From positions 24,683-88,682 of the forward strand of contig DATEZQ010000012.1 in the NCBI GenBank assembly GCA_035583355.1: a stretch of DNA of 64,000 bases. Direction: 5' to 3'. Shown here in pieces: positions 28,899-60,755 of this stretch (the first letter of the stretch is position 1; each line of letters opens with the position of its first letter). The notes below the pieces were generated by a model, which was given only the letters and a program-made list of their open reading frames with translations, was not told the DNA's origin and did no database searches. The stretch comes from Minisyncoccota bacterium. GTDB lineage: Bacteria > Patescibacteriota > Minisyncoccia > Phycocordibacterales > UBA6899. A program made the translations under genes and the position numbers.

Positions 28899-29417
28899 TA
28901 ATTAAAAGTAAAATGAGACAAGAGAGAACTTTCTTTCTTGACCCAACTTTCAATGCTCTTGATTATTACTGTGTTATCGATTACTCGATTTCTCAAAACT
29001 GGAATTACAAATTGATTATGAAATTTGTTATTTTGGTCATTGCCTTTCGTATTACTCATACGGCAGGTTTGACCAGGATCTTGCGTAACACTCAGTTGTC
29101 AAAGTTCTTTACGTCTTTTCGGGGTTTTTGCTTTCGCTGAACTTCGATTGACGTAAGATGCAGTATATACGAATGCCAGGAATAGTCAAGCGATTTCTCC
29201 CCTTTCTTTTTACTGCCCTAGGACTTTATCACACTGAAATACCTATGTCAATACCTTTCTGTTAGTCACTCTATAGAGTACTTTCATAAGCATACTGACT
29301 GACCATTTGAACCACCCTACGCACCTGCATTTCCTCTCCATATATATGTATGTTTGCTGGTGCAAATTCCATGCAGCTGAGCATGAGAAAAACAAAAAGA
29401 ACGCTCATGCGTTCTTT

Positions 29418-37874: not shown

Positions 37875-37961
37875 GGAGACGTGGCTGAGTGGTCGAAAGC
37901 ACCTCACTGCTAACGAGGCATCCCTTTACCGGGATCATGAGTTCGAATCTCATCGTCTCCG
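37875..37961 (+). tRNA. tRNA-Ser (anticodon GCT)
   Basis: Acceptor GGAGACG/CGTCTCC, anticodon loop CTGCTAA, long variable arm (ATCCC-TTTACC-GGGAT), T-arm ATGAG-TTCGAAT-CTCAT, discriminator G. Confidence 0.8.
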
Positions 37962-38020
37962 CAAAAAGAAAAACAACACGCAAGTGTTGTTTTTCTTTTT
38001 GCGGAGACGATGAGATTCGA
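37940..38020. repeat. 81-nt perfect palindrome spanning the tRNA-Ser 3' end, a terminator hairpin and an inverted copy of the tRNA 3' end
   Basis: gttcgaatctcatcgtctccgc + gcaaaaagaaaaacaacac-gcaa-gtgttgtttttctttttgc + gcggagacgatgagattcgaac. Confidence 0.7.
37959..38003. repeat. 43-bp direct repeat DR-left (second copy 39657-39704)
   Basis: gcaaaaagaaaaacaacacgc(a/g)agtgttgttttt(c/g)ttttt is about 40/43 identical between the two copies. Together they bracket a 1.65-kb two-gene module. Confidence 0.55.
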
Positions 38021-38023
38021 ACG

Positions 38024-38200
38024 GATAGGGGTCGGGAAAGGAAGCCCTTTCCCGTCTAGGAGAGCAGGAACCCCTCTTCCCCGAAGAGGGGTTCCGTCGA
38101 GAACCGTGGGTTCTCGAAGCCTTTGGCAGCGCGAGGCTCCTCCGGAGTGCGCCAGCCAAAGGCTGTGAGATTCTCACCCCTTATTAAACAAAAATCTGTC
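38024..38200. ncRNA. GC-rich multi-hairpin element (candidate small RNA or island-border element)
   Basis: Consecutive near-perfect hairpins: gggaaagg-aagc-cctttccc; ggaacccctcttc-ccc-gaagaggggttcc; tcgagaacc-gtg-ggttctcga; gcctttggc...gccaaaggc. The GC content is far above that of the adjacent AT-rich island. Confidence 0.3.
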
Positions 38201-38246
38201 ACTAGTAGCTCTCCAATTCTCTTAGTCTTAACTAGCCTCCTTGCCT

Positions 38247-38690
38247 CTATGAAATCACTTCTTCCACAATTCTTCCGTCTCTATAAACCCAGACGACGTG
38301 CACGCATCTTTTAAGTACTCCAACGAAGATGCCAATTTGGTAATTTAGATTTCTGTAACTCCTTATTTTATTGATATCCGCTACCCCCAATATTGAGCTC
38401 GGGGAGCATTTTTTTATTTCAAATATTGCAAGATTGCGTTCATTTGAACCTCTTCTGTGAATTATTATATCAGGTCGAACAACTGTTCCATCATCATTCA
38501 TTTTTGGTCCAGCTAAGCTTTTGCTATATTCACAGTCTATGTTAAATTCTTGCCCAAAATTACTTTCTAGATACAGAGCAATCCTATGGCTCAGGGTCGG
38601 CTCGTAGATTTTTACATTCATTAGTTCTACCCAGTCATTATCCATAAATAATCGAATTGCGGAACGAATTCCATTTTTTGTATCCTCCAT
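38247..38690 (-). CDS. hypothetical protein with PD-(D/E)xK-like motif
   Basis: 147 aa. RPDIIIHRRG...NLAIFEIKK fits hD-x(n)-E-x-K of restriction-endonuclease-fold nucleases. It lies in AT-rich DNA. Confidence 0.35.
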   Translation of the reverse strand: MEDTKNGIRSAIRLFMDNDWVELMNVKIYEPTLSHRIALYLESNFGQEFNIDCEYSKSLAGPKMNDDGTVVRPDIIIHRRGSNERNLAIFEIKKCSPSSILGVADINKIRSYRNLNYQIGIFVGVLKRCVHVVWVYRDGRIVEEVIS

Positions 38691-38694
38691 ATTA

Positions 38695-39471
38695 CTAGTT
38701 TTCTAATTTGACATATTTCTCTAGTTCAAGTGCAGCATCTCTAATCCCAGATATTTCATATATTAAATCACTGAGTCTATATATCATATCTGATGTTGCC
38801 ACAGACCACTGTTCGCACTGCTTACTCTGGAGGCTCCACAATTCTTTCTCTTTATCTAGGTTTTCTACGGCCTTCTCTTCCTTCTCCCTCAATAATATAT
38901 TTGCGTAATCCCAGTTAATAGTGTCTTTCAATCCATCTGAATGAAGGATCGAACTAAAGTTTTTTAGAATTTCTACCTCAGTAGCAGGTGCATTTATGTA
39001 GTAGCCAAAATCTCCCTTATTACCACCATGCTTATGATTGTTGCCAATATCTGTTATAGGTTTAAATTGAATATCTATTCTATCAATAAGTCCATTTAAC
39101 GACTCAACAACTTCCTCATCACGAGGGATATTCTTTTTAATAAATTTGATAAATCTTAATAATCTTTCTTTATATGCATACACATCAGCATAATATGAGT
39201 GAATATGGTATTGGAGAGCGTCTCCATCAGGTATTGCATCCAGTTCAACGTAAAAGTATTTAAAATATACAGTATACTTTTTTAATTTATTTTCGAACCA
39301 TTCGATTTCAGTTAATCTGTTTATACACTCATTTATATTAACTGTGTTAACGGTCAATAAAAGTGGTCTAATCTTCTGATTGATTTCTGAGATCATATAT
39401 TCTGTTCCCACATTCGTATCTCTAGATATTGAAAGTATACTTTTTATTCTTTGCAAGTGGCTTATTAACAT
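38695..39471 (-). CDS. hypothetical protein
   Basis: 258-aa ORF in AT-rich DNA. It lies 4 nt upstream of, and in a different frame from, the PD-(D/E)xK-like gene; no known domain. Confidence 0.35.
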   Translation of the reverse strand: MLISHLQRIKSILSISRDTNVGTEYMISEINQKIRPLLLTVNTVNINECINRLTEIEWFENKLKKYTVYFKYFYVELDAIPDGDALQYHIHSYYADVYAYKERLLRFIKFIKKNIPRDEEVVESLNGLIDRIDIQFKPITDIGNNHKHGGNKGDFGYYINAPATEVEILKNFSSILHSDGLKDTINWDYANILLREKEEKAVENLDKEKELWSLQSKQCEQWSVATSDMIYRLSDLIYEISGIRDAALELEKYVKLEN

Positions 39472-39656
39472 ACTTAAATTCTATCATGTACTTGCATAAT
39501 CTAAAGTCTAGAATTATTGCGCACCAATCTATTGAATTAGAAGTGCTACGGCCTTTTTGAAAGTGTGGCTAGAAATACCGACCCGCGAGCCTCATAAAAC
39601 GGATCAATATAATCCAAAATAACCTTACAGTACCTACGCCCACGATTACCTCACTC

Positions 39657-39704
39657 ATATGGCCTGCAAAAAGAAAAAACAACACGCGAGTGTTGTTTTT
39701 GTTT
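39657..39704. repeat. 43-bp direct repeat DR-right
   Basis: See DR-left. Confidence 0.55.
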
Positions 39705-39797
39705 TTCCACAGAATCCAATTAATACGAATACCCTCCTTGTTCAGAAACAGCAATTAAATACTTAAGGAATAAAATATTTCACGTACACAGAGAGTT

Positions 39798-41564
39798 CTA
39801 ATCAATTTCACTGTATACGACTTCCCTAAGGAATCTATCTTTTCGAGTAAACGTTGCCCTGGTATGCGCCTGTATGTCGAGCTTGATTTCTTTAGTCCTC
39901 TCTTCATTCTCAATTTTATCCCTATTTAACGTAAGAATATATTGAAAGTTTGACTTTTCCTCTTGCTCTGCGAGAAAATTAAGGCTCTGCACTAGCGTAT
40001 CTTGGTCCACATCAAAAATATTATCATGCACCAATATTGATGGATGTCGCTTCTTCGTATGATTATTAATCATCAATGCAATGTCATAAATAAATACCTT
40101 TTCCCTATCAACGCTATGACTCCCATCTTCAGGAATACGAAAATCGAATTGAACAATTTTTTTACCCTTACCAGACTTTACCGCGGATATATCAAAAGTA
40201 ATTTTGGCATTGCCCATTATATACGAGTGAATATCAGCAAGTGTCCTGTTGAAATCATCGATAACGCTGTTGTAGGACATTATTTCATCTTCAAGGGCAG
40301 ACACGTAGCCATCTCTCTTGCGTTTTAAGACGTTTATCTCATACTCAACACTCTCATGTTCACGCAAATTTGCTTGAGTAATTGATAAATTTTCTTTCCT
40401 CCTAGACATTAATGCGTAACTTTCTTTTAATGAATCAAGGGAACCATTGAAATTTATCATCACAAGCAATGACGACCTTCTCGCGTCTAAAACACTCAAA
40501 CGACTCTGGATTTTTTGCACCTCACTTCTAATCTCGTGAGCACGACCGTCTATAAGGATCTTTTGATAATTCTCAATTTTTTGCTTAAACGCGACAACAT
40601 CACTAATTGACCTTGCAACCAAATCACCAAGCCCCTTTGCAAATTTGTTATACACAAATTGAACTTCGCTAGTATCAATAATTTCCAACTTAGGTATAGA
40701 TTCAATTCTCTGAAGTTCAAACCTTAATGCCGCCCTCTTAATTCGCAGCTGTTCACATTCTAAATCAATATTCCCAAGCTCCTCTTGGTTATTTTGGAAA
40801 ATTGGTTCCATCTTATATTCATCAAGAAGTGAGTTTATTTTTCCGAGCTCAAGCTCAGAATCATTAACTTCGGCCTTGATGTCAGAAATATTTTGATTCC
40901 CAGAACCAGTCAACCTTTTTGTAATATGATTTTTAGTTTTCTGCTTTTCATCAATTTCCTTAAATACCTTTTTTATTCTCCTTATATAGCTAGGATTAAT
41001 TCCGAAAAGGTATAAATGTGGCTTGGTGAGATCTTGGTCAGGGATCTTTTCCCTCAAATCGTAGCAATTTAAAATACTCTTAAATTCTGAATCCTCAGAC
41101 CGTATTAATGGGCCCATAAACTCTCTGAAACTCGGCCTTTCTATATCATCTCCTGAATTGCTGAAAAGCAAATTTCCTAGGTAGGTAGTCGCATCTGCCA
41201 TATTCTTAAACTTTGTAATCTGGCCCTCACATACAATTTCCGGCTTATTCGGCTCTTTTATGGTTCTCCTCAATGTTAACTCCTTCCCGCCGATTGAAAC
41301 GTCAAGACAAATTATTGCGTTATGCGAAAATTTATCAAGCGGGATTTTCATAACCCTGCTATCACTCGAGTCCTTTAAAAGGCAAAAGTTGATAAATTCG
41401 ACTGAGAGCGACTTTCCGACTCCATTTGTTTTTTTATCCTTCCTGGACGTAGACCTTGATTCTGAATCCGGGACCTTCTCTCCAAGAATAATATTTATAC
41501 CATCATAAAAACTGATGGGCTTGAAAGTCTCTGGTTGGCTATATAGCTTATGTAGACGAATCAT
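39798..41564 (-). CDS. SMC/ABC-type ATPase (ABC-three-component-like / DUF2326-like) with coiled-coil insert
   Basis: N-terminal P-loop KKTNGVGKSLSVEF (xxNGxGKS), then about 300 aa of coiled-coil-like sequence. The C-terminal region has a Walker-B-like SILVHDNIFDVD with D-loop. The start overlaps the upstream stop. Confidence 0.5.
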   Translation of the reverse strand: MIRLHKLYSQPETFKPISFYDGINIILGEKVPDSESRSTSRKDKKTNGVGKSLSVEFINFCLLKDSSDSRVMKIPLDKFSHNAIICLDVSIGGKELTLRRTIKEPNKPEIVCEGQITKFKNMADATTYLGNLLFSNSGDDIERPSFREFMGPLIRSEDSEFKSILNCYDLREKIPDQDLTKPHLYLFGINPSYIRRIKKVFKEIDEKQKTKNHITKRLTGSGNQNISDIKAEVNDSELELGKINSLLDEYKMEPIFQNNQEELGNIDLECEQLRIKRAALRFELQRIESIPKLEIIDTSEVQFVYNKFAKGLGDLVARSISDVVAFKQKIENYQKILIDGRAHEIRSEVQKIQSRLSVLDARRSSLLVMINFNGSLDSLKESYALMSRRKENLSITQANLREHESVEYEINVLKRKRDGYVSALEDEIMSYNSVIDDFNRTLADIHSYIMGNAKITFDISAVKSGKGKKIVQFDFRIPEDGSHSVDREKVFIYDIALMINNHTKKRHPSILVHDNIFDVDQDTLVQSLNFLAEQEEKSNFQYILTLNRDKIENEERTKEIKLDIQAHTRATFTRKDRFLREVVYSEID

Positions 41565-41782
41565 ATCTTGAAAATATAAGGCTCCGAAAAATCAACTACT
41601 CCAGATTGATATAGAAATATCAAAGTAAAAATCAATTGGCGATGATTAACTAAACCAACTTGATCTTTCAAACTCAAAACAAGCTCATCGAGGGTGATTT
41701 TTTTTCTTTTTTGAATTCTCTTCAAAATAAGAAACCCTAGATAAGGGGGCGAAACTCCTATTTTTTCATCTTTTGTAATCAT
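41561..41782 (-). CDS. small hypothetical protein (73 aa), middle gene of three-gene cassette
   Basis: Both ends overlap its neighbours by 4 nt (ATGA), indicating translational coupling. Confidence 0.4.
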   Translation of the reverse strand: MITKDEKIGVSPPYLGFLILKRIQKRKKITLDELVLSLKDQVGLVNHRQLIFTLIFLYQSGVVDFSEPYIFKI

Positions 41783-42738
41783 GGAGCGTTCGGGAAAACA
41801 TTACACTTCACCAATTCGTCGAGTAAGTAAAACCTGATTGCCTGATAATCATACTTTTTCTTTGAATTTTTGGAAATTTCATTCTCGAAATATTCAGTGA
41901 GATTAACAAGTGCAACCTCCGCATCCCCATCAGCCTGGGTAAGAAAATCATCACTTCTAATTCGTAGAAAATTCCTCATATACTCGACCTTGGCAGTATC
42001 AAGGCCTAAGGCTCTATCGACTTCAACTCTTGCTGCGCAGTAAATAGGAAGAAGAGAGACTAGTTGCGATTTTAGAAATTCAGATTTCGAAGAGAATCGC
42101 TGCTCGATTTTCCCCTGAGGGTCTGGCTCCTCGCGATACTGTCCATTCGTTAATTCCTTTTTTTCACTAATGTACAGAACCAAATCTGCGATAGTCTCAA
42201 CCTCAGATGCAATTTTGTTTTCAGTTTTAGAATGAGAGCCACCCGAAAATTCCTCCTCAAAAATTTGTAAAATCCTCATGATCTCCCCAGGGGATCCTTT
42301 TGCCCGAACTAAACCTAAGATATCTGTCAAATCCATAATATCCCCTGAATCAAACTTTATTCCTTTAGGGGCAGTAATTGATTTAATTTTACGCTTTTTA
42401 TCTGCAATAATAATAAATTTCAATGTATCATACGAGGAAGAAAGCCCATTGGCGTCAAAAGCTTTTATTGTTTTATCAATTTTTGTTTTACTATTCTCGG
42501 ATGTAACTTGAACGGAAACGCGTTTCTCTTCATCCCCCAGGTCAATAGAGGGGAAGTTCATTCTTAGAATATTTTTATTTTCGAGATTTAAAGCGAGAAT
42601 TTCATTAAGCAGGCGACAGAAAAAATCTTCTAGGTGACTATTTATATCCGTTAGGCCATTTCCATTACTTATCTTAGTTTGCACTTTTATGCGAGCAAGA
42701 TATGCTGTCACCTCATTAATTAAATCTTGCCTATCCAT
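41779..42738 (-). CDS. SMEK-like domain protein (first gene of cassette)
   Basis: The N-terminal region EVTAYLARIKV...LTDINSHLEDFFCRLLNEILALNL...MNFPSIDLGDEEKRVSVQVTS resembles, from memory, N-termini annotated as SMEK domain in ABC-three-component-type conflict systems. Confidence 0.35.
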   Translation of the reverse strand: MDRQDLINEVTAYLARIKVQTKISNGNGLTDINSHLEDFFCRLLNEILALNLENKNILRMNFPSIDLGDEEKRVSVQVTSENSKTKIDKTIKAFDANGLSSSYDTLKFIIIADKKRKIKSITAPKGIKFDSGDIMDLTDILGLVRAKGSPGEIMRILQIFEEEFSGGSHSKTENKIASEVETIADLVLYISEKKELTNGQYREEPDPQGKIEQRFSSKSEFLKSQLVSLLPIYCAARVEVDRALGLDTAKVEYMRNFLRIRSDDFLTQADGDAEVALVNLTEYFENEISKNSKKKYDYQAIRFYLLDELVKCNVFPNAP

Positions 42739-42843
42739 GCTGCAATTATATCATAATTGAAATTGAATTCTCCTTAGCACGTAGTAATATTGTCGAAAAA
42801 ACCGCCAACGCGGTTTTTATTACCTCTTGCATCCTCCTACTCT

Positions 42844-43443
42844 TCAAAAAGTCCCCGTCTTTACTTCTCCAACACGCTCATAGTTAGCAAAGATCACTCC
42901 GCTCGGGGAAACCTTACTGTCTGTGAGCTTAAAGGCTGCAGGAATCGTCCCCTCAGCGAAAAGACGTTTACCTGTGCCCAGGGTAATTGGGAATATTTTT
43001 AGCCAGAGTTCATCAACCAAGTCGTGCTTCCAGAGAGTCTGGGCAAGGTTGCCACTCCCGTACACATGCAGATCGGGACCATCTTGTTTCTTTAGTTCCT
43101 GAATTTTTTCAACCACAGAAGCACCCGAAATCACTACTGAATTTTCCCAAGTTGGATCAAAGAGTGAATGCGATACAACATACTTTTTCATCGTATTTAT
43201 CCCCTGCCATCCATCCGCATGTGTCGGCCAATAGGAAGCAAAGATGTCGTACGTTTTCCTCCCCAAGAGAAGCTCTGATGGTCTGTTCATCTGCTCTGCC
43301 ATAACCGCGTTCCCCAATTCATCAAAATAGGGGACGGTCCAACCGCCGTACTTGAATCCACCGGAAGTATCTTCCTGCGGCCCTCCCGGAGCCTGCATAA
43401 CACCATCGAGTGTTATAAATGTTAAAACAATAATTTTTCTCAT
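42844..43443 (-). CDS. dihydrofolate reductase family protein (RibD C-terminal domain-like)
   Basis: MRKIIVLTFITLDGVMQAPGG...GGWT...LLLGRKTY pattern of YwjB/RibD_C family. Confidence 0.65.
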   Translation of the reverse strand: MRKIIVLTFITLDGVMQAPGGPQEDTSGGFKYGGWTVPYFDELGNAVMAEQMNRPSELLLGRKTYDIFASYWPTHADGWQGINTMKKYVVSHSLFDPTWENSVVISGASVVEKIQELKKQDGPDLHVYGSGNLAQTLWKHDLVDELWLKIFPITLGTGKRLFAEGTIPAAFKLTDSKVSPSGVIFANYERVGEVKTGTF

Positions 43444-43516
43444 ATATATTGACTGCGCTACATTGATAAAAAGGCTTTGAAAGAGACGAGGCTCCTTACA
43501 ATCCGCTCACTGCTCT

Positions 43517-43756
43517 CTACTTCCTCCACCTCGGCGCAAACCTCACGAGCCACGTGAAAAACCTCGCCTTTATCTCCCCCACCCCATTAGCCCTCATCCC
43601 CTCATAACACCTCTTCTGAAACTCCTTCAAATCATTCCCCTCATAACAAAGCTTCCCATCCTTAAAACAATAACTACAATATTTATCACTCCCACTTACC
43701 CCAGGATCCTTGTCCAAAGGCATCAAGCAACTTTCACACATGGGTTTCTTTTTCAT
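43517..43756 (-). CDS. zinc-ribbon domain protein
   Basis: 79 aa with CESC...CSYC cysteine pairs. Confidence 0.4.
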   Translation of the reverse strand: MKKKPMCESCLMPLDKDPGVSGSDKYCSYCFKDGKLCYEGNDLKEFQKRCYEGMRANGVGEIKARFFTWLVRFAPRWRK

Positions 43757-43769
43757 ATGATTATTATAT

Positions 43770-43797
43770 CAAAAACCAGCACGAGGTGCTGGTTTTT
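43770..43797. terminator. conserved-stem terminator hairpin (AAAAACCAGCAC-loop-GTGCTGGTTTTT family)
   Basis: Other members: 47683-47709, 48866-48889, 49356-49390, 49989-50016. CAACAC variants: 37962-38002, 39660-39703, 51402-51428, 52367-52394. Confidence 0.55.
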
Positions 43798-43799
43798 TA

Positions 43800-44264
43800 T
43801 TATGCAACTTTCTTCAGTTCCTTAAAACGCATCCAGATCAAAACGATATATACTACGAACGGAATCCAAGATACAAACAATGAGAAGAAGAAAAGATACG
43901 CAAATAAAGGGGCAAGCGGTGACATAAGGACCATATAGTACACATTACGCAACACAATAAGGCCATAGATTTTACCATCAAATCGCGATTCCGATGTGGT
44001 GAATTTTTTTCTGAATACGAAACTTTCCAAAACAATAAAAATCAAGAAATTTCTTATGTCTGAAGATATCGAACTAAAGTACGAACTTAATTGAACCGTT
44101 CGATCATGCATTATAATAGTGTCCGCAAGTAACATCACTGCAACCAGAATAAAGGTAATGATGTTTAGTCGAGGAATCTTCTCTGTCCAAAATACATTTT
44201 TGATTGGTGCAGCATTTTCTACTGCACTCGCAGCTGGCACTGCAGTCGCGTTTTCATTTTCCAT
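43800..44264 (-). CDS. hypothetical membrane protein
   Basis: 154 aa with four predicted TM helices. Confidence 0.4.
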   Translation of the reverse strand: MENENATAVPAASAVENAAPIKNVFWTEKIPRLNIITFILVAVMLLADTIIMHDRTVQLSSYFSSISSDIRNFLIFIVLESFVFRKKFTTSESRFDGKIYGLIVLRNVYYMVLMSPLAPLFAYLFFFSLFVSWIPFVVYIVLIWMRFKELKKVA

Positions 44265-44326
44265 AACACTATTATATCAAAAAAATACAGGCATCCTCAG
44301 GATGCCTGTAATCGATTGCAGTATTT

Positions 44327-44521
44327 CTAGTCCTTCATGTAGTTCCACTCGAGATCCTCGGGCGGCTCGCCGAGCACCTTCTTGAGCTCCTCGAGCTTCT
44401 CCTTACAACCCTTGGGCATCACGAACGCACCGACATTATCGGCGCCGCTCGCATTCCAGCGCGGATCGGACTTGCTGTACAGCGTCCAAGTGCCTGGGCG
44501 GAGCAATGGAATGAGTACCAT
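44327..44521 (-). CDS. small hypothetical protein (64 aa)
   Basis: MVLIPLLRPGTW... begins 17 nt after the upstream stop, with an AAGAGAGG RBS. The longer ORF-track version (to 44716) is the alternate frame of the upstream gene. Confidence 0.25.
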   Translation of the reverse strand: MVLIPLLRPGTWTLYSKSDPRWNASGADNVGAFVMPKGCKEKLEELKKVLGEPPEDLEWNYMKD

Positions 44522-44537
44522 GTCGTAACCTCTCTTT

Positions 44538-45101
44538 CTAAAACTTCGTTGAAATATGTATTCGCAATGAACGGTACTTCGCCTTTTCTTTCCCGAAGAG
44601 CAATTCGAGTGAGGCCACCTTAATTCTGAACCACAAGAGGAGCCAAAAGATGAAGATCGTGCTTTCGTGCTCGTAGCCAAAGTGCTCGGGCTCGAAGGTC
44701 TTTGGATCATAGCCAAGGTGATACACCTCGGGCCTGTCCTCCGCCTCGATTTGCGTCGTGAGATCTGACTTCCAGAAGTGATGGAACTTCAGCAGTCCTT
44801 CACCAGATTTCCAAATCTTGTAATGCCCTACGCGGTCTTTCTTGATGCCGTAGGAGTGCTCCTTGTGCGTCTCAGCTTCCTTGTCTTCGATACTGACATT
44901 CCCCTGCTCGGCAGTGTGTCCTGAAATGGCGTCTCCACCAGACTTCGTAGTGACACTACTCTCGAGTGCGAAGAATTTCTCCTTATCGAGCGTATCGCCA
45001 TAGGCGATAATCGTCCGCATGGCTGAGCAGTCGCTGTCTTCGCCTGCGATCAGGCGCTCGAGCGCTGCGTTGAGCATGAGCTTATCGACTACAGGATCCA
45101 T
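44538..45101 (-). CDS. hypothetical protein
   Basis: 187-aa ORF with an acidic N-region and a hydrophobic C-terminal stretch. Confidence 0.4.
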   Translation of the reverse strand: MDPVVDKLMLNAALERLIAGEDSDCSAMRTIIAYGDTLDKEKFFALESSVTTKSGGDAISGHTAEQGNVSIEDKEAETHKEHSYGIKKDRVGHYKIWKSGEGLLKFHHFWKSDLTTQIEAEDRPEVYHLGYDPKTFEPEHFGYEHESTIFIFWLLLWFRIKVASLELLFGKEKAKYRSLRIHISTKF

Positions 45102-45193
45102 GAAACCTCCGTAATATTCCTAGAGTAATATACAATATATACTGCCAATTGTCAATTACATTCTTGTATGATCAATCCTTTATAATATATAGC

Positions 45194-45571
45194 ATGAACT
45201 CAATAACATATTTTGAAATCCAAGCCTCGAACCCTCCCGCACTCGTAAAATTCTACTCTTCTATCTTCAACTGGCATTTTGCGCGCGTAGATGGGCTCCC
45301 CATCGAGTATTACCACATCAGCAATGCAGGTATCAACGGCGGACTCCTCCAGCGCCCCATGAAAGTTCCTCCAATGGAATACGGCACCAATGCATTCACC
45401 AACTCAATCGAGGTCGAAAACTTCGACGCAACCGCAAAACTTATCTTGGAGCATGGCGGAACAATCGCCATGGAAAAATTTGCAATCCCCGGAAAATGCT
45501 GGCAGGGATATTTCCTCGATACCGACAATAACGTTTTCGGATTAGTACAAGTCGACCCCAATGCAAAGTAA
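45194..45571 (+). CDS. VOC (glyoxalase/bleomycin-resistance) family protein
   Basis: Start MNSITYFEIQ; beta-alpha-beta-beta-beta paired-module pattern (YFEIQ...FNW...GG...GT...FGL). Confidence 0.5.
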   Translation: MNSITYFEIQASNPPALVKFYSSIFNWHFARVDGLPIEYYHISNAGINGGLLQRPMKVPPMEYGTNAFTNSIEVENFDATAKLILEHGGTIAMEKFAIPGKCWQGYFLDTDNNVFGLVQVDPNAK

Positions 45572-45851
45572 ACAAGTTATCTGTTCTCGTGGACACGAAT
45601 TCACCAAAACACCTGCGACTCCTGTCTGTCCTATCTGCTGGCCCGGATACAAAAAGAATCAACGCATAGACCTCCCTACCGACCTCTCCGCTCCCGCATA
45701 TCGTGCACTGACCGATGCGAACATAACGACCCTCAAGAAACTTGCACAGTACACGGCAGAAGATATTCTTTCATTACATGGAATTGGACCGAGCTCACTC
45801 CCTAAATTGAAACGAGCCTTAGCAGAAAATAATCTTGCATTCAAGCAATAG
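45561..45851 (+). CDS. hypothetical protein (helix-hairpin-helix-like C-terminus)
   Basis: 96 aa; CxxGH...CPIC zinc-ribbon-like N-terminus and an LHGIGPSSLPKL HhH-like motif. Confidence 0.35.
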   Translation: MQSKQVICSRGHEFTKTPATPVCPICWPGYKKNQRIDLPTDLSAPAYRALTDANITTLKKLAQYTAEDILSLHGIGPSSLPKLKRALAENNLAFKQ

Positions 45852-45854
45852 CAT

Positions 45855-46322
45855 ATGCAAAAAATTACCCCTTATCTCTGGTTCGACAGCAATCTCAAAG
45901 AAATCACGGACTACTATCTCTCAGTCTTCCCTGAAGCAACGCTCCATACGAATGGAACGCTCTCCGATACACCTTCGGGTGAAGTCGAGCTCGCAACACT
46001 CACCATCTTCGGACAAGAATTGAACCTCATGACTGCAGGTCCGATGTTCAAATTCACTGAGGCAATCTCTTTTATGATTCACTGTGACACACAAGAGGAG
46101 ATCGATTACTACTGGGAGAAACTTTCCGCGGTTCCTGATGCTGAGCAGTGCGGCTGGTGCAAAGACAAATATGGCCTCTCATGGCAAGTCGCACCAACCG
46201 CCTTGGAGGAGATGCTCGCGTGTGGCGACAAGAAAAAAGTTGCAAGCGTCACCCAAGCATTTCTCAAGATGAAGAAATTCCATATCAGTTTGCTCGAAGA
46301 AGCATTCAATAATCCACAATAA
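45855..46322 (+). CDS. VOC family protein (PhnB-like)
   Basis: ITPYLWFD ... QCGWCKDKYGLSWQV signature of the PhnB/3-demethylubiquinone-9 methyltransferase-like glyoxalase family. Confidence 0.6.
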   Translation: MQKITPYLWFDSNLKEITDYYLSVFPEATLHTNGTLSDTPSGEVELATLTIFGQELNLMTAGPMFKFTEAISFMIHCDTQEEIDYYWEKLSAVPDAEQCGWCKDKYGLSWQVAPTALEEMLACGDKKKVASVTQAFLKMKKFHISLLEEAFNNPQ

Positions 46323-46323
46323 T

Positions 46324-46746
46324 ATGCCACTCAATGTTCTCGCAATATTTATTGCAGCAATTACCGCATTCGTGCTTGGCTTCATGTTCCATGGACCTCT
46401 CCTCGGGAAGCTCTGGATGCGCCTTGCAGATATCCATCCTACCGGCAACGAAAAGCTCAGTGACATGCTCCCGCAGCTCGGATGGAATTTCCTCACAAAT
46501 CTTATTACTGCAGCAATGCTCGCCGTCCTCTATGCATTCACGGAAACTTCGCCTTATCTCTCTGGAGATGGCGCAATCCGCGGCGCACACTTAGGCGTCA
46601 TGGTCTGGGGAGGATTCATCGCGACCTCGTCCGCAGTCGAGGTCATCTGGATGGGGCGCAAGTTCAACCTCTGGCTTTTTGAAGCATGTTGCTCTATGGT
46701 CATCATGGCAATCATGGGTGCAATCATCGCAAGCATGCCCGCATAA
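46324..46746 (+). CDS. DUF1761-family membrane protein
   Basis: The N-terminus VLAIFIAAITAFVLGFMFHGPLLGKLW matches the DUF1761 pattern; four TM helices. Confidence 0.5.
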   Translation: MPLNVLAIFIAAITAFVLGFMFHGPLLGKLWMRLADIHPTGNEKLSDMLPQLGWNFLTNLITAAMLAVLYAFTETSPYLSGDGAIRGAHLGVMVWGGFIATSSAVEVIWMGRKFNLWLFEACCSMVIMAIMGAIIASMPA

Positions 46747-46779
46747 AAGAAAACCCCGCACTTGTGGTGCGGGGATTTT

Positions 46780-47031
46780 TTATGCCTTCGGACGAGTGAG
46801 CCGTGGGACGATGTACTTCTTCGTGATAAGGAAGACGAGGCCTGAGCTGAGCGCGAAGGACGTGACGACGACGATCAACGGACCATGCTGCCCGAGATAG
46901 CCGGTAACGAACTCGTCGAAGGAAGAGGGTGGCAGAAGCAGCTTCCCGTACAGGAAACCGAGGCCGAAGATGGCGGAGAGCGAGACAATCGTGAAGAACA
47001 AACTTGCGAGCAGAAACTGCTTGATATTCAC
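46780..47031 (-). CDS. small membrane protein
   Basis: 83 aa with two hydrophobic helices. Confidence 0.3.
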   Translation of the reverse strand: MNIKQFLLASLFFTIVSLSAIFGLGFLYGKLLLPPSSFDEFVTGYLGQHGPLIVVVTSFALSSGLVFLITKKYIVPRLTRPKA

Positions 47032-47182
47032 TGTACCTCCAAGTCCCCTGAGGGAAATATGAGCAATCTATTCGTAGACTAATAGATATCACCACAGCAG
47101 TCAATGAGCGCTTTTGTTATTGACAAATATGTTATGTGTGGTACGGTTTTCACAGTTGCACCACTTACCTACAGGAGCCCAC

Positions 47183-47656
47183 ATGCGGCGACAACAGTAC
47201 TTCAGGCGTCTTTACCAAAGCATCTCATGCCTTGCTCAGAAGTCCATGCAAACCACGCATGAACTCGACTACCTCGAATCACTCTGCAGCGCCCTACTCC
47301 GGGATGGCAAAAGAGCGACGGACTTCAAGTTCGTCTATGCTCATGCTCGTCCTCGGTCGCAGTCCCGCGTGCAGGCGTACCGAAATCTGCGTCGCCTCGC
47401 GATGCAGCAGAGCATCCGTGCAGGAAGCGTGGGTGAAATCAAGAAGATCTTCGCGGACACTCCGACTGACGTCCGCCCCGTGGTCATCGAGCACTGGATT
47501 GGCCTCGCACGCACGCGAAATGACTTCATGGAGGCATACCGCGCAACCGAAAAACGCGGCATCGCGAACGAAGTCATGCTCCGCAGAAAATTCATTGCGG
47601 CCGCGAGTGCAGTCGGTGTCCTGCTCACCTTCCCCAAGCTGGCGCAAGTCATCTAA
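47183..47656 (+). CDS. hypothetical protein
   Basis: Reading frame with normal composition, followed by a conserved-stem terminator at 47683-47709. The overlapping 237-aa ORF in another frame is S/R-rich and rejected. Confidence 0.3.
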   Translation: MRRQQYFRRLYQSISCLAQKSMQTTHELDYLESLCSALLRDGKRATDFKFVYAHARPRSQSRVQAYRNLRRLAMQQSIRAGSVGEIKKIFADTPTDVRPVVIEHWIGLARTRNDFMEAYRATEKRGIANEVMLRRKFIAAASAVGVLLTFPKLAQVI

Positions 47657-47714
47657 TGCTCCTCGGCTCGAGAAGGCTCCAGCAAAAAACCAGCACTATG
47701 TGCTGGTTTTGAAT

Positions 47715-48818
47715 TTACGCAAGCCTGCGCATCATGTTCGCGCGATACGCATTGAAATCGATAGTCATGAGCGGTCCAGTTTTTGCAAGGCCAACAGGAA
47801 CACCTACCTTCTCCTCGAGCTCATGAATGAATTCGAGTGCGGAGGGTGAAAGCATTTCCTTGTTGTACAACTGTGCATCGAGGTGATCGAGGAAGGTAAG
47901 TGCGATCTCACTCACTCGATTCACCATACATGCGCGTCGCACATTCTCATAACTGAACGTTGCAACCCTTCGCACGGAGCCCGTCACTGAAGTACGCTCC
48001 GTAATGTCATGTACATTTCCTGCACGCCTTGCGACGGCATCCCAAGAAATCTCTTGCGAGCCTGTGCCAAAGCTTCCGCTTGGGCCACCGACACGAATAG
48101 GATACGTCCGCGCGACACCAATGACTTCAACGTCAAAGCCGTAGGGATTCACGCCGCAGCCTGAAAAGAGCGCTTGTGCTGTAGTGTCCCTGCTCGTCAC
48201 ATAAGGGAAATTCCCATGTTCGAGACTAAGGCCAAATCCTTGCGTACCCTCAAAGATGATGAGCTGGTCGCTGTCGAGTTCCCTGTTCAGGAGTTCAACA
48301 GTATCGACAATGAATGGCCGCAGCACGGGAATATCTTTTGCAAACGTGCAGCGGTCACTACGCATGACTTTGTCAGACATTGCCATGCCGATACCGAGAC
48401 CACTCTTTGCAGAAGTGCTCGAGATTCTCTCGGCAAGCGTTGTCGCCTGCTCGTCACGGATTTGCGCGTCAGTAATGACATGCGCGTGCGCGTCGATGAA
48501 GAGACGGTGCCTGATGGGCTCTATCTTTTCAATGAGTGTGATTTCCTTGAGCAGCACAGGAAGACTAATGATGGAAGAAATTCCAATCACGAGCTTCGTG
48601 AGCGGGTTCACCCAACCACAAGGAATCGTACGCATAACATATGGCACGCCATTGTACATGACAGTATGTCCGGCATTCGCCGCACCAATACGTACACATA
48701 CAGAGGCTGCCGCAGAGAGGTAAGCAGCGATTGCACCCTTCCCCTCAGAGCCGAACTGTAGTCCTACGATGGCGATCGCACGCCCTGCTTTTTCAAGTAT
48801 TCGCATGAGTCGCTCCAC
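47715..48818 (-). CDS. purA: adenylosuccinate synthetase (short, archaeal-type)
   Basis: GLQFGSEGKGAIAAYL P-loop, GHTV motif, and the GDEGKG-family architecture; only 367 aa. Confidence 0.75.
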   Translation of the reverse strand: MERLMRILEKAGRAIAIVGLQFGSEGKGAIAAYLSAAASVCVRIGAANAGHTVMYNGVPYVMRTIPCGWVNPLTKLVIGISSIISLPVLLKEITLIEKIEPIRHRLFIDAHAHVITDAQIRDEQATTLAERISSTSAKSGLGIGMAMSDKVMRSDRCTFAKDIPVLRPFIVDTVELLNRELDSDQLIIFEGTQGFGLSLEHGNFPYVTSRDTTAQALFSGCGVNPYGFDVEVIGVARTYPIRVGGPSGSFGTGSQEISWDAVARRAGNVHDITERTSVTGSVRRVATFSYENVRRACMVNRVSEIALTFLDHLDAQLYNKEMLSPSALEFIHELEEKVGVPVGLAKTGPLMTIDFNAYRANMMRRLA

Positions 48819-48903
48819 GGGAACTGATCTTCTTCCATCATAAGCAAAGCACTGTTCGTGTCAACAAAAAAACCAGCACAGTGTGCTGGCGTGTTTCACT
48901 AGT

Positions 48904-49263
48904 TCACACTGTGCTGCCACCATTAGCCAACTTTGAGACACGCACCAAGTCAAGCAAGATGCGATTAAAATCGCGATGGAGCGCACCCCAACTCTTCGTG
49001 CGAGAAGTGGTTGCGGAATTAACATACTCAAGAGATTCCTTGATAAGCTTTGCAAATGCGGTACGTGCCTCTCGGTGGGCCTCGCTATCCGTAAGCTGTA
49101 AGCCAACCACATTAAAATAGCGTAGTATCACACAACGAAGTTCTAATGCGAGCTCACGCTCCTTTTGATTGCGGGCGATCTTGCGGGCTACGGCCACACC
49201 GATCACGATACTGGCAAGTGCAAGCAAATTCGGAAACCAGGCTGATGCGAAAATATTACTCAT
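48904..49263 (-). CDS. hypothetical protein
   Basis: Probable start MSNIFASAWFPNLL; a single TM then a helical region. Confidence 0.3.
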   Translation of the reverse strand: MSNIFASAWFPNLLALASIVIGVAVARKIARNQKERELALELRCVILRYFNVVGLQLTDSEAHREARTAFAKLIKESLEYVNSATTSRTKSWGALHRDFNRILLDLVRVSKLANGGSTV

Positions 49264-49386
49264 CTCCCTCTCCCTCAAATATGTGGCACAAGGACCACAA
49301 AAACCTTCGTCACAATACCACATAATTCATATTTGGCAATACTCTTCTCATTATGTAAAAAACCAGCACATTGTGCTGGTTGTATT

Positions 49387-49929
49387 TTATCGCCCCGCTT
49401 TAAGCAGTGCAGCACAGACGGTCTCTTCCATCGTTCCGTAAATTGGAAAATTGGAATTCGTTCCTCTACAATAATTGCGCGTAATCTGCTTGAGCCCCGG
49501 AAAGCCTGCCTCGGCGCCGATGACGATGCGCAACTTTGGATTGTGCATAAGGTGCCCCCGCCATTCGGCAATCTCACCGTAGGTCTCGAGCGCGTACGGC
49601 TCACCATTCCCACGTGGACGCTCCTTTGATTCCTCAGGGAGCCAGAATACGAGGCAACCTTTCTCGGCAGCGATTTCGATATAGTGTCGCTCCCAGTATT
49701 GCTGGTGTTCGAACTCCCCCATGTGACCATAGATGGAGTGAGGGAGGAGTGGATGATCCTCGGGATACCTGCACGGAAGTGCGGCAGTGAAATGCGGGAT
49801 ATACCCACGCAAGATCGTGCAGAATTTCTGCTGCCAATCATCGCCACCACGGACGGGGCCAGCAAGAAAAAAGAACGGACCATAACTGAAGTCCACAGGA
49901 CTTACCCGTTTCGGTAAATAGATACGCAT
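49387..49929 (-). CDS. nucleoside 2-deoxyribosyltransferase-like protein
   Basis: PFFFLAGPVRGGDDW near the N-terminus resembles the Rossmann-like NDT/DUF4406 family. Confidence 0.45.
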   Translation of the reverse strand: MRIYLPKRVSPVDFSYGPFFFLAGPVRGGDDWQQKFCTILRGYIPHFTAALPCRYPEDHPLLPHSIYGHMGEFEHQQYWERHYIEIAAEKGCLVFWLPEESKERPRGNGEPYALETYGEIAEWRGHLMHNPKLRIVIGAEAGFPGLKQITRNYCRGTNSNFPIYGTMEETVCAALLKAGR

Positions 49930-50018
49930 AAGACCTCCTTTGCTTCTCCCCCTAAAATACAGGACTTTCCTGAATTGGTCGAGGAAATAAAAACCAGCAC
50001 ATATATGCTGGTTTTTGA

Positions 50019-51367
50019 CTACATCTTCATGGCATCGAATGCCTTATCGAGAATGCCGAGCATCGTTTCGTGCATCGAAGGCTTTGCGTCCTTGCCCTCA
50101 CCTGCTGCTTTTACAATAAAGGAGAGTGGACCACTCACTGCACTACTTTTTGCATCAGTTGCCAGATACAGGGTGTTCCCGACCACTTCCATGGTGAGCT
50201 CAAACGGTAATTCCATGATCTGCTCCATGAAGTCAGGAGTAAGGAGTTCAAATGTCTCCATTGAATCACGTTCATCAGCATACACTTCGAACTCTTTGAT
50301 GAAAGCATTACTTTCCATCTCATGCTTTACCAAGCCACTTGGACCAAACTGGAGCAGGTGCTTGCGGCGTACAAGAATATCATTGTGATGGATTGGAAGA
50401 ATAGCTTGCGCAATGAAACAGCTCTTTACCACTTGCCTATTACTATTCATGATATCCATCGTATAGAACTCGACAATCTTGTCGCGGTAATAGCCAACAA
50501 CATGATTGTTGATATCCGTATTCCCGAATCGTGAGTCCTTAAAGAGCTGGCCCTTGTTCGGTAGCATGAGCCAGCCGAAATCAGGATTGTAGTAGAATCC
50601 GTGCTTCTGTGCAAAATGCGCAATGTTTCCATCAAGACTGAATGGATTCTCGGTAGCCTGATGAATAGCATAGAGCTTCCACGTATCCCCACTACGAATG
50701 AAATCCCAAGTCTCCGTAAAGGAGCTATTATCCACAAAGAGCTTCTCTCCTGTCTCCTTTTCAATCAGTTCATCTTTTGCGTCTGCAGAAAACTCTACAG
50801 AGAATGTATCTTTATTATTGTCCGTTTCGTCAGAGAAATATGAAATGGCAGCGCGATTTATCGATTTGATTGTCGTCGGATTCCTGCGCCCTTCATTGTT
50901 GAGCACCGCAAGCTCAAGTGCGATGCGCTTATACATTGAGGGTTCGAGAATCTTCTCGAGTGCGGGGACATCTATTTCACCCCATGCGCGCTGAAACTCA
51001 AGGAATATTTCCTTCGCAAGCGTAACAAGATGTTCTCTGTTCCATGCAGGGTCGCTACTTGCGACAGCATCGACAGAAGCATTCACTGCAGCATCTCTTG
51101 CATCGCGTGCTTTCTTCACATGGATTGCACTATAGATAACAAGCGCAGCGATACCAAAGACAAAAAGCAGCATGAACCATATACATGCGGGGGACGTACA
51201 ACTTCCGCCGGCTCCACCACCACCGCTATATGAACCGCCACCACCACCTCCGCCTCCACCCCCGCCACCACTTGAGCCGCCACCTCCCGCTCGAGCCCAG
51301 GCAATGACCGGCAATACGCCGAGTACAAACAAAGTTGCCCCCAGCTGATATGCGCGTGTTTGTTTCA
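50019..51367 (-). CDS. Tim44-like domain membrane protein with poly-Gly N-region
   Basis: Start MKQTRAYQL at 51367; the ORF-track extension overlaps the pilin gene. It has a TM, a Gly-rich run (GGGGSSGGGGGGGGGGGG), a second TM, then a Tim44-like block DPAWNREHLVTLAKEIFLEFQRAWGEIDV. Confidence 0.45.
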
Positions 51368-51423
51368 TTTTTCTATTTTCGCATGATTTCGCCCTAGGAG
51401 CAAAAACAACACCGAAGTGTTGT

Positions 51424-51918
51424 TTATTGGCAAGGCGCTGGTGCTCGGTAATCAATGCGTGTGACGGTGTTGGTGAGCTCAGAAGGATACCAAAGGGTGA
51501 CTGTATCAAAACCCGCAAAAGGGTTACTTCCATGGGCAGGCGGATAGCAGTAATAGCCGTATGCATATCCATTCGCTGTCGTTGCCGCAGAGCCAGTATT
51601 ATTATTAATCGGATCTCGAGGAACTTTTGAGAATATACTTGATGTTGCGAGAAATGGAATGAAGTCACCTTGCGCGCTGCTATCGATTCCACTCGTGTTT
51701 GACTCACCATAAGCAGAAGTCTGCGGAAGAAATCCTTTCAAGTCAGCATATATTTCGAGTGCAATCTTTATCTGATCGATATCGTGCTTGCGCCGTGCAT
51801 CTCGTGCTTTCGCGCGCGCAGACGTGAGGGTCGACGTGATCATACTCGAAAGCAGCGCGATAAGCGCAATGACGACAAGCAATTCAATCAATGAGAATCC
51901 CTTGGAGTACCTCTTCAT
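51424..51918 (-). CDS. type IV pilin-like protein (prepilin N-terminal cleavage/methylation domain)
   Basis: MKRYSKGFSLIELLVVIALIALLSS class III signal. Confidence 0.7.
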   Translation of the reverse strand: MKRYSKGFSLIELLVVIALIALLSSMITSTLTSARAKARDARRKHDIDQIKIALEIYADLKGFLPQTSAYGESNTSGIDSSAQGDFIPFLATSSIFSKVPRDPINNNTGSAATTANGYAYGYYCYPPAHGSNPFAGFDTVTLWYPSELTNTVTRIDYRAPAPCQ

Positions 51919-51935
51919 ATGATGAGTGTAATATA

Positions 51936-52325
51936 TTAATTCTGCTCTCGTGCTGCGAACAATGGATGTAATTTCTCGTAGCTAAGATACGATACGACGA
52001 GTAGAGCGAATGCACCCACAGAGTAGAGTATCTCAACCTCAAGACCTTCAACGACCAAATGACTAATGAATGCGGAAATGAAATCGAACGCAAATCCAAC
52101 ATATGCCCACTCTCGAATGCGTCGTGGTGTCTGTGGGAGTATGAGCGCTATTGCACCGAGCACCTTGAACGCCATCAGCATGAATGCAAAATAAATAGGA
52201 TAGCCCAGGCTCATAATATCGGTAAGCGCCTCAGGTGACTGCCAATTAATGACCGTGAGTACACCCTCGAAAAATACGAGTGAGGCCGTTGCAATCCAAA
52301 ACAAAGTATAGTACTTCTGCATCAC
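51936..52325 (-). CDS. DoxX-like family membrane protein
   Basis: 129 aa, four TM helices with DoxX-like pattern. Confidence 0.45.
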   Translation of the reverse strand: MMQKYYTLFWIATASLVFFEGVLTVINWQSPEALTDIMSLGYPIYFAFMLMAFKVLGAIALILPQTPRRIREWAYVGFAFDFISAFISHLVVEGLEVEILYSVGAFALLVVSYLSYEKLHPLFAAREQN

Positions 52326-52390
52326 TCTATTTTACACTATAAAATGGAAAAGTTTGATAATAATGCAAAAACAACACCTCCGTGTTGTTT

Positions 52391-53146
52391 TTACAATTTT
52401 CGCCACAAGAGCTCGAATATCTTCTTCTGAAACATTGCTACGGTCTTATTTTGGATAACAGTTGCAGTCTCCGTGTTGTAGTCGATGACCGCCACCTTAT
52501 CTCCATAGATAACTTGGGAGACATTATATTCAAAAAGATCGAAGTCCGGAGGAACCACTTTCACCTCCCTGTCTAGATTGAGCAACTTCGAATTCTTGTT
52601 TTGCTCGTTAGTGATCACGAGCCGCTCGAGCTGCTTCTTATTGCGCAAGAGTCGATATTTCTTTGAAATATATGTCCCTCCCTCGCGCTCGCCATTACGC
52701 ACCTTCGTAGAGCTGTAGCGATAATAGGTGTCTCCAGGATGAAGGCTCATGGCAACATCATCATAGATTGCCTTTATTGCCTCACGCCCCTCACTGTACT
52801 CAACGATTGGTTTCGCACTTCCCTCCCTATGTGCGAGTGCAGTGAGCGTAGCAATATGCTCGTCAAACTTATTGGAGAGCTGCACAAAACGATCCTCGAG
52901 TTTGCGGGGTGGAGCTGCCGCATAGACTTTGTATTTTCCTTTCGGGCGCACAACAACCAGTCCCTCCTGCATGAGCTCTTCGAGTGTTGCGTAGATGACC
53001 ATACGTGTGAGCTTCATTGCACGCGCAATCTCAGAAACACCCGCGGCGCCACTTTGGAGGAGATGCAAATATATCTGACTTCCCCGAACAGTAAGCCCCA
53101 TATTCGCTAAAAACTCTTCGTGTGCTTTTTGTGGATTGATTTCCAT
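52391..53146 (-). CDS. TrmB-family-like HTH transcriptional regulator
   Basis: The N-terminal winged HTH (IYLHLLQSGAAGVSEIARAMKLTRMVIYATLEELMQEGLV) resembles TrmB sugar-responsive regulators. Confidence 0.45.
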   Translation of the reverse strand: MEINPQKAHEEFLANMGLTVRGSQIYLHLLQSGAAGVSEIARAMKLTRMVIYATLEELMQEGLVVVRPKGKYKVYAAAPPRKLEDRFVQLSNKFDEHIATLTALAHREGSAKPIVEYSEGREAIKAIYDDVAMSLHPGDTYYRYSSTKVRNGEREGGTYISKKYRLLRNKKQLERLVITNEQNKNSKLLNLDREVKVVPPDFDLFEYNVSQVIYGDKVAVIDYNTETATVIQNKTVAMFQKKIFELLWRKL

Positions 53147-60589: not shown

Positions 60590-60627
60590 AACCAAGGAAA
60601 TGCTTTCGCATTTCCTTGGTTATTTTG

Positions 60628-60676
60628 TCCATCCAGCACGACTCGAACGTGCGACCGGCCGTGTATAACATCGGCC
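60628..60676 (-). other. partial tRNA 3' copy (anticodon arm through acceptor 3' strand), diverged from adjacent tRNA-Ile(TAT)
   Basis: TTATACACGGCC-GGTC-GCACG-TTCGAGT-CGTGC-TGGATGG parallels the 3' two-thirds of the neighbouring tRNA. It lacks a D-arm and a matching 5' acceptor strand. Confidence 0.45.
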
Positions 60677-60682
60677 ATTTTG

Positions 60683-60755
60683 TCCGCCCTGCAGGACTCG
60701 AACCTGCGACCAGTCGTGTATAAGACGACCGCTCTACCAACTGAGCTAAGGGCGG
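60683..60755 (-). tRNA. tRNA-Ile (anticodon TAT; AUA-decoding)
   Basis: The reverse complement folds as a clean 73-nt cloverleaf. Acceptor CCGCCCT/AGGGCGG (C1:G72), D-arm GCTC-AGTTGGTA-GAGC, anticodon arm GTCGT-CTTATAC-ACGAC, T-arm GCAGG-TTCGAGT-CCTGC, discriminator A. Confidence 0.6.

Follow-up and report, generated by a model that had tools for sequence, protein, structure and literature searches.

Nine short hairpins that share one stem and differ in their loops were found in a 64-kb stretch of DNA from a Candidatus Paceibacterota bacterium (Parcubacteria, Candidate Phyla Radiation (CPR); contig DATEZQ010000012.1), an organism with Paceibacterota/Lloydbacteria-like RecG homologs. The whole of this stretch is called the window hereafter, and a further ~10 kb of DNA from the same organism was available past its left edge (L162). 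The hairpins (hp1 to hp9; Table 1) span a strain-variable island that extends from tRNA-Ser(gct) to a TrmB-like gene. They are a genuine short palindromic repeat family and more than nine unrelated terminators. Judged by their sequence, the nine sites are best read as Rho-independent (intrinsic) terminators, and the account that we favour, and hold to be moderately probable, is a locus-restricted paralogous terminator family that would have arisen by local re-use during cassette gain, with selection on the stem at the RNA level. An earlier note on this DNA had described the hairpins and compared them to DNA uptake sequences or to a dispersed palindromic repeat. What it said of a real palindromic repeat family in accessory DNA stands; its uptake reading does not.

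Anatomy and distribution of the hairpins

All nine hairpins follow the same plan, which consists of an A-tract of 4-7 nt, a core stem, a loop of 3-4 nt, the complementary core and a T-tract of 4-7 nt. The core stem is 6-8 bp long and A:U pairs extend it outward. Two sub-types can be distinguished, the CCAGCAC/GTGCTGG type with five members (hp3, hp4, hp5, hp6 and hp7) and the CAACAC/GTGTTG type with four (hp1, hp2, hp8 and hp9). The difference between them amounts to one compensated G:C to A:U pair and one additional C:G pair, and both have the core C-A-R-C-A-C in common. From hp1 to hp9 the loops are GCAA, GCGA, GAG, TAT, AGT, ATT, (C)ATATA, CGAA and CTCC; all are distinct, as the earlier note had listed them, and some are stable UUCG or GNRA tetraloops. 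A deviating member is hp7, which has a longer loop (6 nt unpaired centre) and a broken top pair.

Each of the nine was located at the position reported before or a few bases away. The literal consensus proposed for them fits exactly at hp3 only, because the A/T tracts and the outermost pairs are variable, but the family itself is found with mismatch-tolerant and arm-only searches. At up to three mismatches, AAACCAGCACNNNGTGCTGGTTT occurs at 4 sites in the window (0.00 expected) and AAAACAACACNNNNGTGTTGTTTT likewise at 4 (0.01 expected), each pattern recovering the four regular members of its sub-type. The arm AAMCARCAC was counted 18 times in the window compared to 1.99 +/- 1.47 times in shuffled sequences, so that its frequency lies above chance, and 16 of the 18 are hairpin arms. 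AAACCAGCAC and AAAACAACAC rank among the commonest 10-mers of the window other than plain A-runs. Four of the hairpins (hp2, hp3, hp8 and hp9) are unchanged in independent Logan assemblies, which argues that the hairpins are no assembly quirk. Rfam contains no match for them.

In total, 35 terminator-like hairpins were identified in the window, 12 inside 37.9-52.4 kb and 23 outside. Family stems make up 9 of the 12 and none of the 23 (Fisher p=3e-6), which bears out the proposed concentration in accessory DNA. The statement that other terminators have unrelated stems could also be confirmed, as none of the 26 other terminator-like hairpins of the window carries a family core.

Table 1. Position and context of the hairpins, of the island in which they lie and of the X RNA loci. 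Coordinates refer to the window, except for X RNA, where they are preceded by the locus.
Feature	Position	Strand	Sequence or type	Context	Fold (kcal/mol)
tRNA-Ser(gct)	37875-37962	+		ARAGORN, Rfam; the variable island begins at the tRNA 3' end	
Perfect palindrome	37941-38022		39-nt arms	last 22 nt of tRNA-Ser, hp1, inverted copy of those 22 nt	
Strain-variable island	37963-52397			GC profile, PADLOC, blastn against L157 and L159, gene tables	
hp1	37969-37994	+	AAAAACAACAC-GCAA-GTGTTGTTTTT; CAACAC type	6 nt past tRNA-Ser	-22.6 (extended stem)
hp2	39675-39700	-	CAACAC type	97 nt past stop of DUF2326/PDC-M68B gene (39798-41564)	-12.4
hp3	43771-43797	-	AAAAACCAGCAC-GAG-GTGCTGGTTTTT	2 nt past stop of 154-aa gene	-16.2
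hp4	47686-47710	both	CCAGCAC type	bidirectional, between convergent genes: 180-aa + strand gene ends 47656, adenylosuccinate-synthetase-like - strand gene ends 47715	-14.8 and -15.3 (two strands)
hp5	48866-48890 (stem 48873-48889)	-	CCAGCAC type	14 nt past stop of 139-aa gene; T7 run on - strand	
hp6	49361-49381	-	AACCAGCAC-ATT-GTGCTGGTT	5 nt past stop of 180-aa gene	
hp7	49989-50016	-	AAAAACCAGCA-loop-TGCTGGTTTTT	2 nt past stop of 449-aa Tim44-like gene	
hp8	51404-51425	-	CAACAC type; UUCG loop on transcribed strand	overlaps stop of pilin-like gene (51424-51918)	
hp9	52367-52392	-	AAAAACAACAC-CTCC-GTGTTGTTTTT	overlaps stop of TrmB-like gene (52391-53146)	
X RNA	L028 73-197	+			
X RNA	L082 1-126	+			
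X RNA	L079 6152-6279	+			
X RNA	L062 4030-4153	-			
X RNA	L073 2484-2625	+			
X RNA	L120 93-225	-			
X RNA	L015 203-337	-			
X RNA	L071 6375-6494	-			
X RNA	L080 7546-7658	-			

The hairpins as probable terminators

The RNA folds of all nine hairpins fall between -11.1 and -22.6 kcal/mol, and every hairpin is followed at its 3' side by a run of 5-7 U on the strand of its upstream gene. Eight of the nine follow the stop codon or tRNA end upstream of them at a distance of 0-30 nt, and hp2 is the exception. Because the stem is flanked by both an A-tract and a T-tract, most of the hairpins would be bidirectional. Promoter-like sites lie directly after hp3, hp5 and hp6. Past hp3, TGATATAAT precedes the start of a Zn-ribbon gene, and the promoter-like TTGACA-16-TATGAT (48864-48837) begins 5 nt past the hp5 stem. 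A separate small transcription unit, made up of unrelated genes, would be closed by each hairpin. Hairpins at gene ends combined with promoter-like sites suggest that the island is built of self-contained promoter-gene-terminator units.

An A-tract, a stable stem, a short loop and a U-tract, located behind stop codons, behind a tRNA and between genes that converge, are the hallmarks that these hairpins have in common with intrinsic bidirectional terminators. Unlike ordinary terminators, they present the same 6-8 nt stem core behind nine unrelated genes, and only in one 15-kb variable island. The hairpin shape, for its part, appears to be as generic as a simple terminator would be. A degenerate-hairpin scan of genome contigs returned at least 120 stretches from very diverse phyla, nearly all with one copy per 8-kb block, and these listed matches yield no frequency estimate. 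Scanning of viral sequences led to 4 matches of the CCAGCAC hairpin on related contigs without window genes, 2 matches of the CAACAC hairpin and 38 matches of a CAGCAC hairpin, most of which have common flanks and look like one site in related contigs; none of these viral matches is related to this locus. Most of the IMG/VR contigs L171-L208, many of which are 4-14 kb long, carry an apparently orthologous A6-CAGCAC-AATAA/TTATT-GTGCTG-T6 between conserved flanks, and this terminator is an independent case of a CAGCAC hairpin kept across related phage contigs.

A variable island of unrelated cassettes

Comparison with related genomes showed that most island genes are missing from the relatives and that the island is strain-variable. 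The closest relative found (L157, RecG 92% identical) is without the segments 43774-45668, 47042-49350 and 49898-52397 according to blastn, and in a more distant one (L159, RecG 80% identical) tRNA-Ser lies only ~1 kb from RecG. A low-GC block at 38247-42738 (GC 0.32-0.38) carries candidate anti-phage defence genes, namely a PD-Lambda-3_A-like gene (147 aa) with an orphan 258-aa partner, a PDC-M68B/DUF2326 gene (588 aa) and a SMEK-domain gene (319 aa). The remaining island genes code for unrelated small accessory proteins, including adenylosuccinate-synthetase-like, Tim44-like, pilin-like and DoxX proteins. A metagenome scan with the adenylosuccinate-synthetase-like protein retrieved distant relatives only (<=52% identity), and these have different terminators.

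The proteins beside the hairpins include no paralogs of one another. DNA similarity between hairpin copies covers 19-28 nt and ends at the A/T tracts, with the exception of one 41-nt pair. As the flanking genes are unrelated, the repeated unit is the ~26-nt hairpin alone. A segmental duplication is thereby ruled out; the earlier note had itself asked whether all copies might descend from a single duplicated segment, and what is repeated among the unrelated genes is just the hairpin. Joint import of the hairpins from a single donor was also rejected, since the GC content at third codon positions of the hairpin-flanked genes ranges from 0.38 to 0.66.

The 41-nt pair is a 93% repeat located at 37961-38000 and 39666-39706, in the regions of hp1 and hp2, and represents an extended hairpin with AAAAAG/CTTTTT shoulders. 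It brackets the PD-Lambda-3-like two-gene cassette together with a structured stretch (see below), and the bracketed cassette has the appearance of a small segment inserted at the tRNA-Ser terminator. A match to the cassette (37960-39710) was found neither in phage nor in plasmid collections.

Conserved stems and changing loops among relatives

The earlier note regarded a conserved stem with a variable loop as unusual for terminators. Orthologous terminators of this lineage do exactly that. The AAAATTCTAGC terminator has the loop GTAA in the window and GTAC in L157, the ACGCCCCC terminator AATT in the window and AACA in L157, and in both cases the stem is kept. The stem of hp6 (ACCAGCAC-ATT) is likewise the same in L157, with a one-base loop change, next to a gene whose DNA is ~70% identical. 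Stem conservation combined with a free loop can thus be considered the normal mode here. Downstream of TrmB, the terminator is built on CGGCAC/GTGCCG in L157 compared to CAACAC/GTGTTG in the window. These two compensated G:C to A:U changes follow the path that would be expected for an RNA helix under AT-biased mutation, and CAGCAC, the intermediate of the CGGCAC-CAACAC series, links the two sub-types.

In a third relative (L163), this hot spot has four terminators, two of which are ACCAGC-based (ACCAGCG-CTCG and ACCAGCC-TCGC), and these two stems resemble each other more than they resemble the window versions. The family therefore belongs to this hot spot in this genus, and its members inside one genome are more similar than orthologs are. 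No family hairpin was detected in L159, L164, L167 and L168. About 10% of the other terminators of this lineage close the loop with CAC...GTG, for example A5-CGGCCAC-CGA-GTGGCCG-T5; terminators closed in this way are located at 10248-10274 and 46754-46774 in the window, at 15343-15370 in L157 and at 9936-9952 and 12149-12177 in L167. This proportion suggests a lineage-wide preference at the top of the stem that narrows terminator sequence space.

Proposed local re-use of a terminator

According to the account that we favour, the hairpins would have multiplied locally at the tRNA-Ser insertion hot spot while cassettes accumulated there, a terminator being copied or re-used at each new cassette junction. 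The stem would afterwards have been held by selection on the RNA hairpin, and the loops would have been left to drift. We infer both the termination activity and the local copying with its mechanism. If this plain reading is true, the island offers a tidy case of terminator evolution in reduced CPR genomes, with variable and defence islands assembled from insulated one-gene units, which helps annotation and brings little surprise. The finding would gain greater weight if the shared stem reflects a mechanism.

Several points weigh against this account. The hairpin stem ignores the kinship of the neighbouring gene: it is exact in L157, where the protein is 67% identical, and has a variant top in L163, where the protein is 85% identical. 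The five CCAGCAC copies show zero compensatory stem changes despite nearly unrelated loops. Such invariance hints at sequence-specific selection, a very recent spread or copying that skips the loop, and simple duplication followed by drift predicts neither the invariant stem nor the mismatch with gene kinship. Neither duplication junctions nor target-site signatures were found, and the copying mechanism is conjectural. The distribution of the family is that seen in 64 kb plus ~10 kb of this genome. The invariant stem and the mismatch with gene kinship might be due to a recent local spread, to homogenisation, to a protein or recombination partner that selects for the sequence itself, or to a mode of copying that restores the arms without the loop.

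Less likely readings as recombination sites, mobile palindromes or operators

It is conceivable that the hairpins are recombination sites, or portable stretches of homology, that serve the insertion, swap and excision of cassettes and have termination as a second function. Such events would be brought about by a recombinase encoded at another locus or, following natural transformation, by RecA-dependent recombination. We consider this unlikely, even though the repeat delimits each of the unrelated cassettes, the family is restricted to a tRNA-linked hot spot and recombinase core sites typically combine conserved arms with a free centre. The 41-nt repeat around the PD-Lambda-3-like cassette and the greater similarity of copies inside one genome than of orthologs also fit. 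On its two sides the insertion 49898-52397 has hp9 and hp7, and the DNA past hp7 resembles that past the single TrmB terminator in L157; these two hairpins, however, belong to different sub-types, and the insertion 47042-49350 has a hairpin at one end only, its right end being without. Moreover, spacers of 3-4 nt are too short for tyrosine-recombinase or Xer cores, the cassettes are variously oriented and contain promoter-like sites of their own, and integrase (including IntI/Phage_integrase-type), serine recombinase, transposase and Y1/HUH domains are absent from the window open reading frames (ORFs) scanned.

Integron attC and plasmid pdif sites are the closest parallels considered for such a role, with unrelated cassettes between palindromic sites that combine conserved arms and a variable centre. 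In contrast to attC, which measures 57-141 nt, the sites described here are perfect palindromes of ~26 nt, lack RYYYAAC/GTTRRRY boxes and have no integrase by the array, and in contrast to integron cassettes the cassettes carry promoter-like sites of their own. The pdif/Xer sites consist of two 11-nt arms and a centre of 6-8 nt, whereas the centre here has 3-4 nt, or 6 in hp7. A bolder and rather improbable idea is that the ~26-nt terminators double as junctions at which a DNA-uptake-dependent CPR bacterium swaps promoter-gene-terminator cassettes in an integron-like manner with no neighbouring integrase. Patescibacteria are regarded as dependent on the uptake of DNA, and their routes of gene gain are little understood. 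If the repeat marks cassette junctions at a tRNA-linked hot spot, it would provide a testable handle on gene gain in this group.

The hairpins could also be a mobile palindrome of the repetitive extragenic palindromic (REP) or miniature inverted-repeat transposable element type, spread by a transposase encoded elsewhere (a REP-associated tyrosine transposase (RAYT) or similar) and landing at the 3' ends of genes. Like REP/REPIN-RAYT systems, the family consists of a short extragenic palindrome whose flanks are not repeated with it, occupies gene 3' ends and is more uniform within than between genomes. In a loose sense the dispersed REP-like repeat that the earlier note envisaged is therefore possible, but dispersal outside the island is not seen: none of the 23 terminator-like hairpins there belongs to the family, and no decayed copy (<=3 mismatches) exists elsewhere in the 64 kb. 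The ORFs scanned in the window gave no RAYT or other transposase match (Y1_Tnp/Y1-transposase). Neither a conserved REP-type 5' tetranucleotide nor target duplications are visible, and the ~26-nt unit has the A/T-tract build of a terminator. The precise placement 0-30 nt past stop codons with a correctly oriented U-run suits selection for termination better than random insertion, so that we doubt a mobile origin and judge it unlikely.

An operator function was considered as well, in which the palindromes would be DNA operators of the island-encoded TrmB-family regulator and the neighbouring cassettes its regulon. In archaea, the sites of the TrmB family are inverted repeats, for example TATCAC-N5-GTGATA. 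For seven of the nine hairpins the next gene start follows after 15-204 nt, hp3 adjoins a -10-like box, and the window, L157 and L163 contain both TrmB and the hairpin family, L159, L164, L167 and L168 neither of them. This co-occurrence, however, is confounded by phylogeny and locus. There is no downstream gene start at hp1 and hp4, and the ACCAGC half-sites are 6 to 8 nt apart depending on the copy or relative, a variation that would suit a dimeric DNA-binding protein badly. Every copy also shows the A/T tracts of a terminator and proximity to a stop codon, and an operator function seems very unlikely.

Comparison with DNA uptake sequences

In Neisseria and Pasteurellaceae, DNA uptake sequences (DUS) and uptake signal sequences (USS), respectively, are recognised during uptake of DNA. 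Under the reading advanced for the hairpins, an arm of 10-12 nt would be recognised by the type IV pilus machinery and the inverted pairs would double as terminators. DUS commonly occur as inverted pairs with free spacers, reach a density of ~1 per 1.1-1.5 kb in Neisseria and, like USS, are enriched in the core genome and missing from recently acquired genes (PMC2397512).

The fixed arm, the inverted pairs with a free spacer and the terminator role do match this frequent arrangement (PMC2397512), and an ACCAGC-type stem is common to three related genomes. Type IV pilus genes are encoded by the organism (N_methyl and PilM), in keeping with the type IV pilins that the earlier note had named; the ComF that it had also named was not recovered, as no ComF-type domain was found in the ORFs scanned. 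In contrast to true uptake sequences, the hairpins occur far below 1 per kb (PMC2397512) and single arms are not in excess, with 2 isolated copies of AAMCARCAC outside the hairpins against 2.0 expected by chance in 64 kb. Zero copies, even at 3 mismatches, are present in the ~49 kb of core sequence of the window, and the ~10 kb of L162 outside it holds no family hairpin. The confinement of the copies to recently gained genes is the reverse of the DUS/USS distribution, and single occurrences of this hairpin shape were recorded in many unrelated phyla and phages. For the DNA sampled, an uptake function is thus extremely improbable. The lesson of this null result is that inverted-pair terminators by themselves are no evidence for an uptake sequence.

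A structured RNA with a similar terminator

A structured RNA of ~125 nt, here termed X, was found in nine CPR loci among the genome-scan matches listed. Its terminator has the form A5-CAGCAC-N4-GTGCTG-T5 (AAAAACAGCAC-GCAG-GUGCUGUUUUU), the invariance of which is in part an effect of ascertainment, as this very pattern served to find the loci. X is convergent to a tRNA, the identity of which varies (among others Ala, Ile-tat and Arg), and ends in a ..UCCA tail that is a mirror of the 3' end of the tRNA. Four covarying helices were identified, with 15 pairs changed on both sides, and 89.7% of cells are paired compared to 41-48% in slid controls. X matches no Rfam family. In the remaining 95, mostly non-CPR, listed loci there was no convincing match; a single marginal one, from Acinetobacter (39.5 bits), is probably driven by the hairpin. 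Among the matches listed, X was found to be CPR-specific.

The terminator of X resembles hp1, which also follows a tRNA immediately, is a mirror of its 3' end and is one compensated pair apart. Unlike the terminator, the body of X is not detectable in the window: the best score (31.6 bits) is no better than that of hairpin-only matches, and a window homolog of X lacks support. A rather improbable idea is that a CPR-wide factor recognises an A5-CARCAC stem, which also ends X RNA.

The tRNA-Ser end and other observations

The palindrome around hp1 is 100% complementary in a repeat search, and blastn-short aligns tRNA positions 67-88 with 38022-38001. Two independent Logan contigs both end near this palindrome. 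The adjoining stretch 38022-38200 is GC-rich and contains five stacked near-perfect hairpins within a closing helix GGAGAGC/GCUCUCC, with fold z-scores of -9.0 on one strand and -10.6 on the other. Rfam offers no convincing match to this stretch, relatives, phages and plasmids contain no counterpart, and it could be either an unknown RNA or a cluster of DNA palindromes. In L159 (12966-13307), two partial 5' copies of tRNA-Ser precede the tRNA-Ser gene with a run of N between them, which reflects either a recombination hot spot or a collapsed scaffold repeat.

Two further loci of the window involve tRNA-Ile. Directly downstream of tRNA-Ile(tat) (60682-60755), beside a gene of the 23S rRNA intervening-sequence protein (23S-rRNA-IVP) family, lies a partial copy of the 3' half of this tRNA including the anticodon region (60627-60668, core of 29 nt at 90% identity), which looks like an integration scar. 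A tRNA-Ile with the anticodon UAU is uncommon in bacteria; the gene is conserved in L157, L159 and L079. The 16S rRNA gene (27389-28905) is not followed by a 23S gene, and tRNA-Ile(gat) is found 3.4 kb downstream (23884-23959). Protein ORFs, including an IMPDH/GMP-reductase-like gene, occupy the interval instead, which indicates that the rRNA operon is unlinked.

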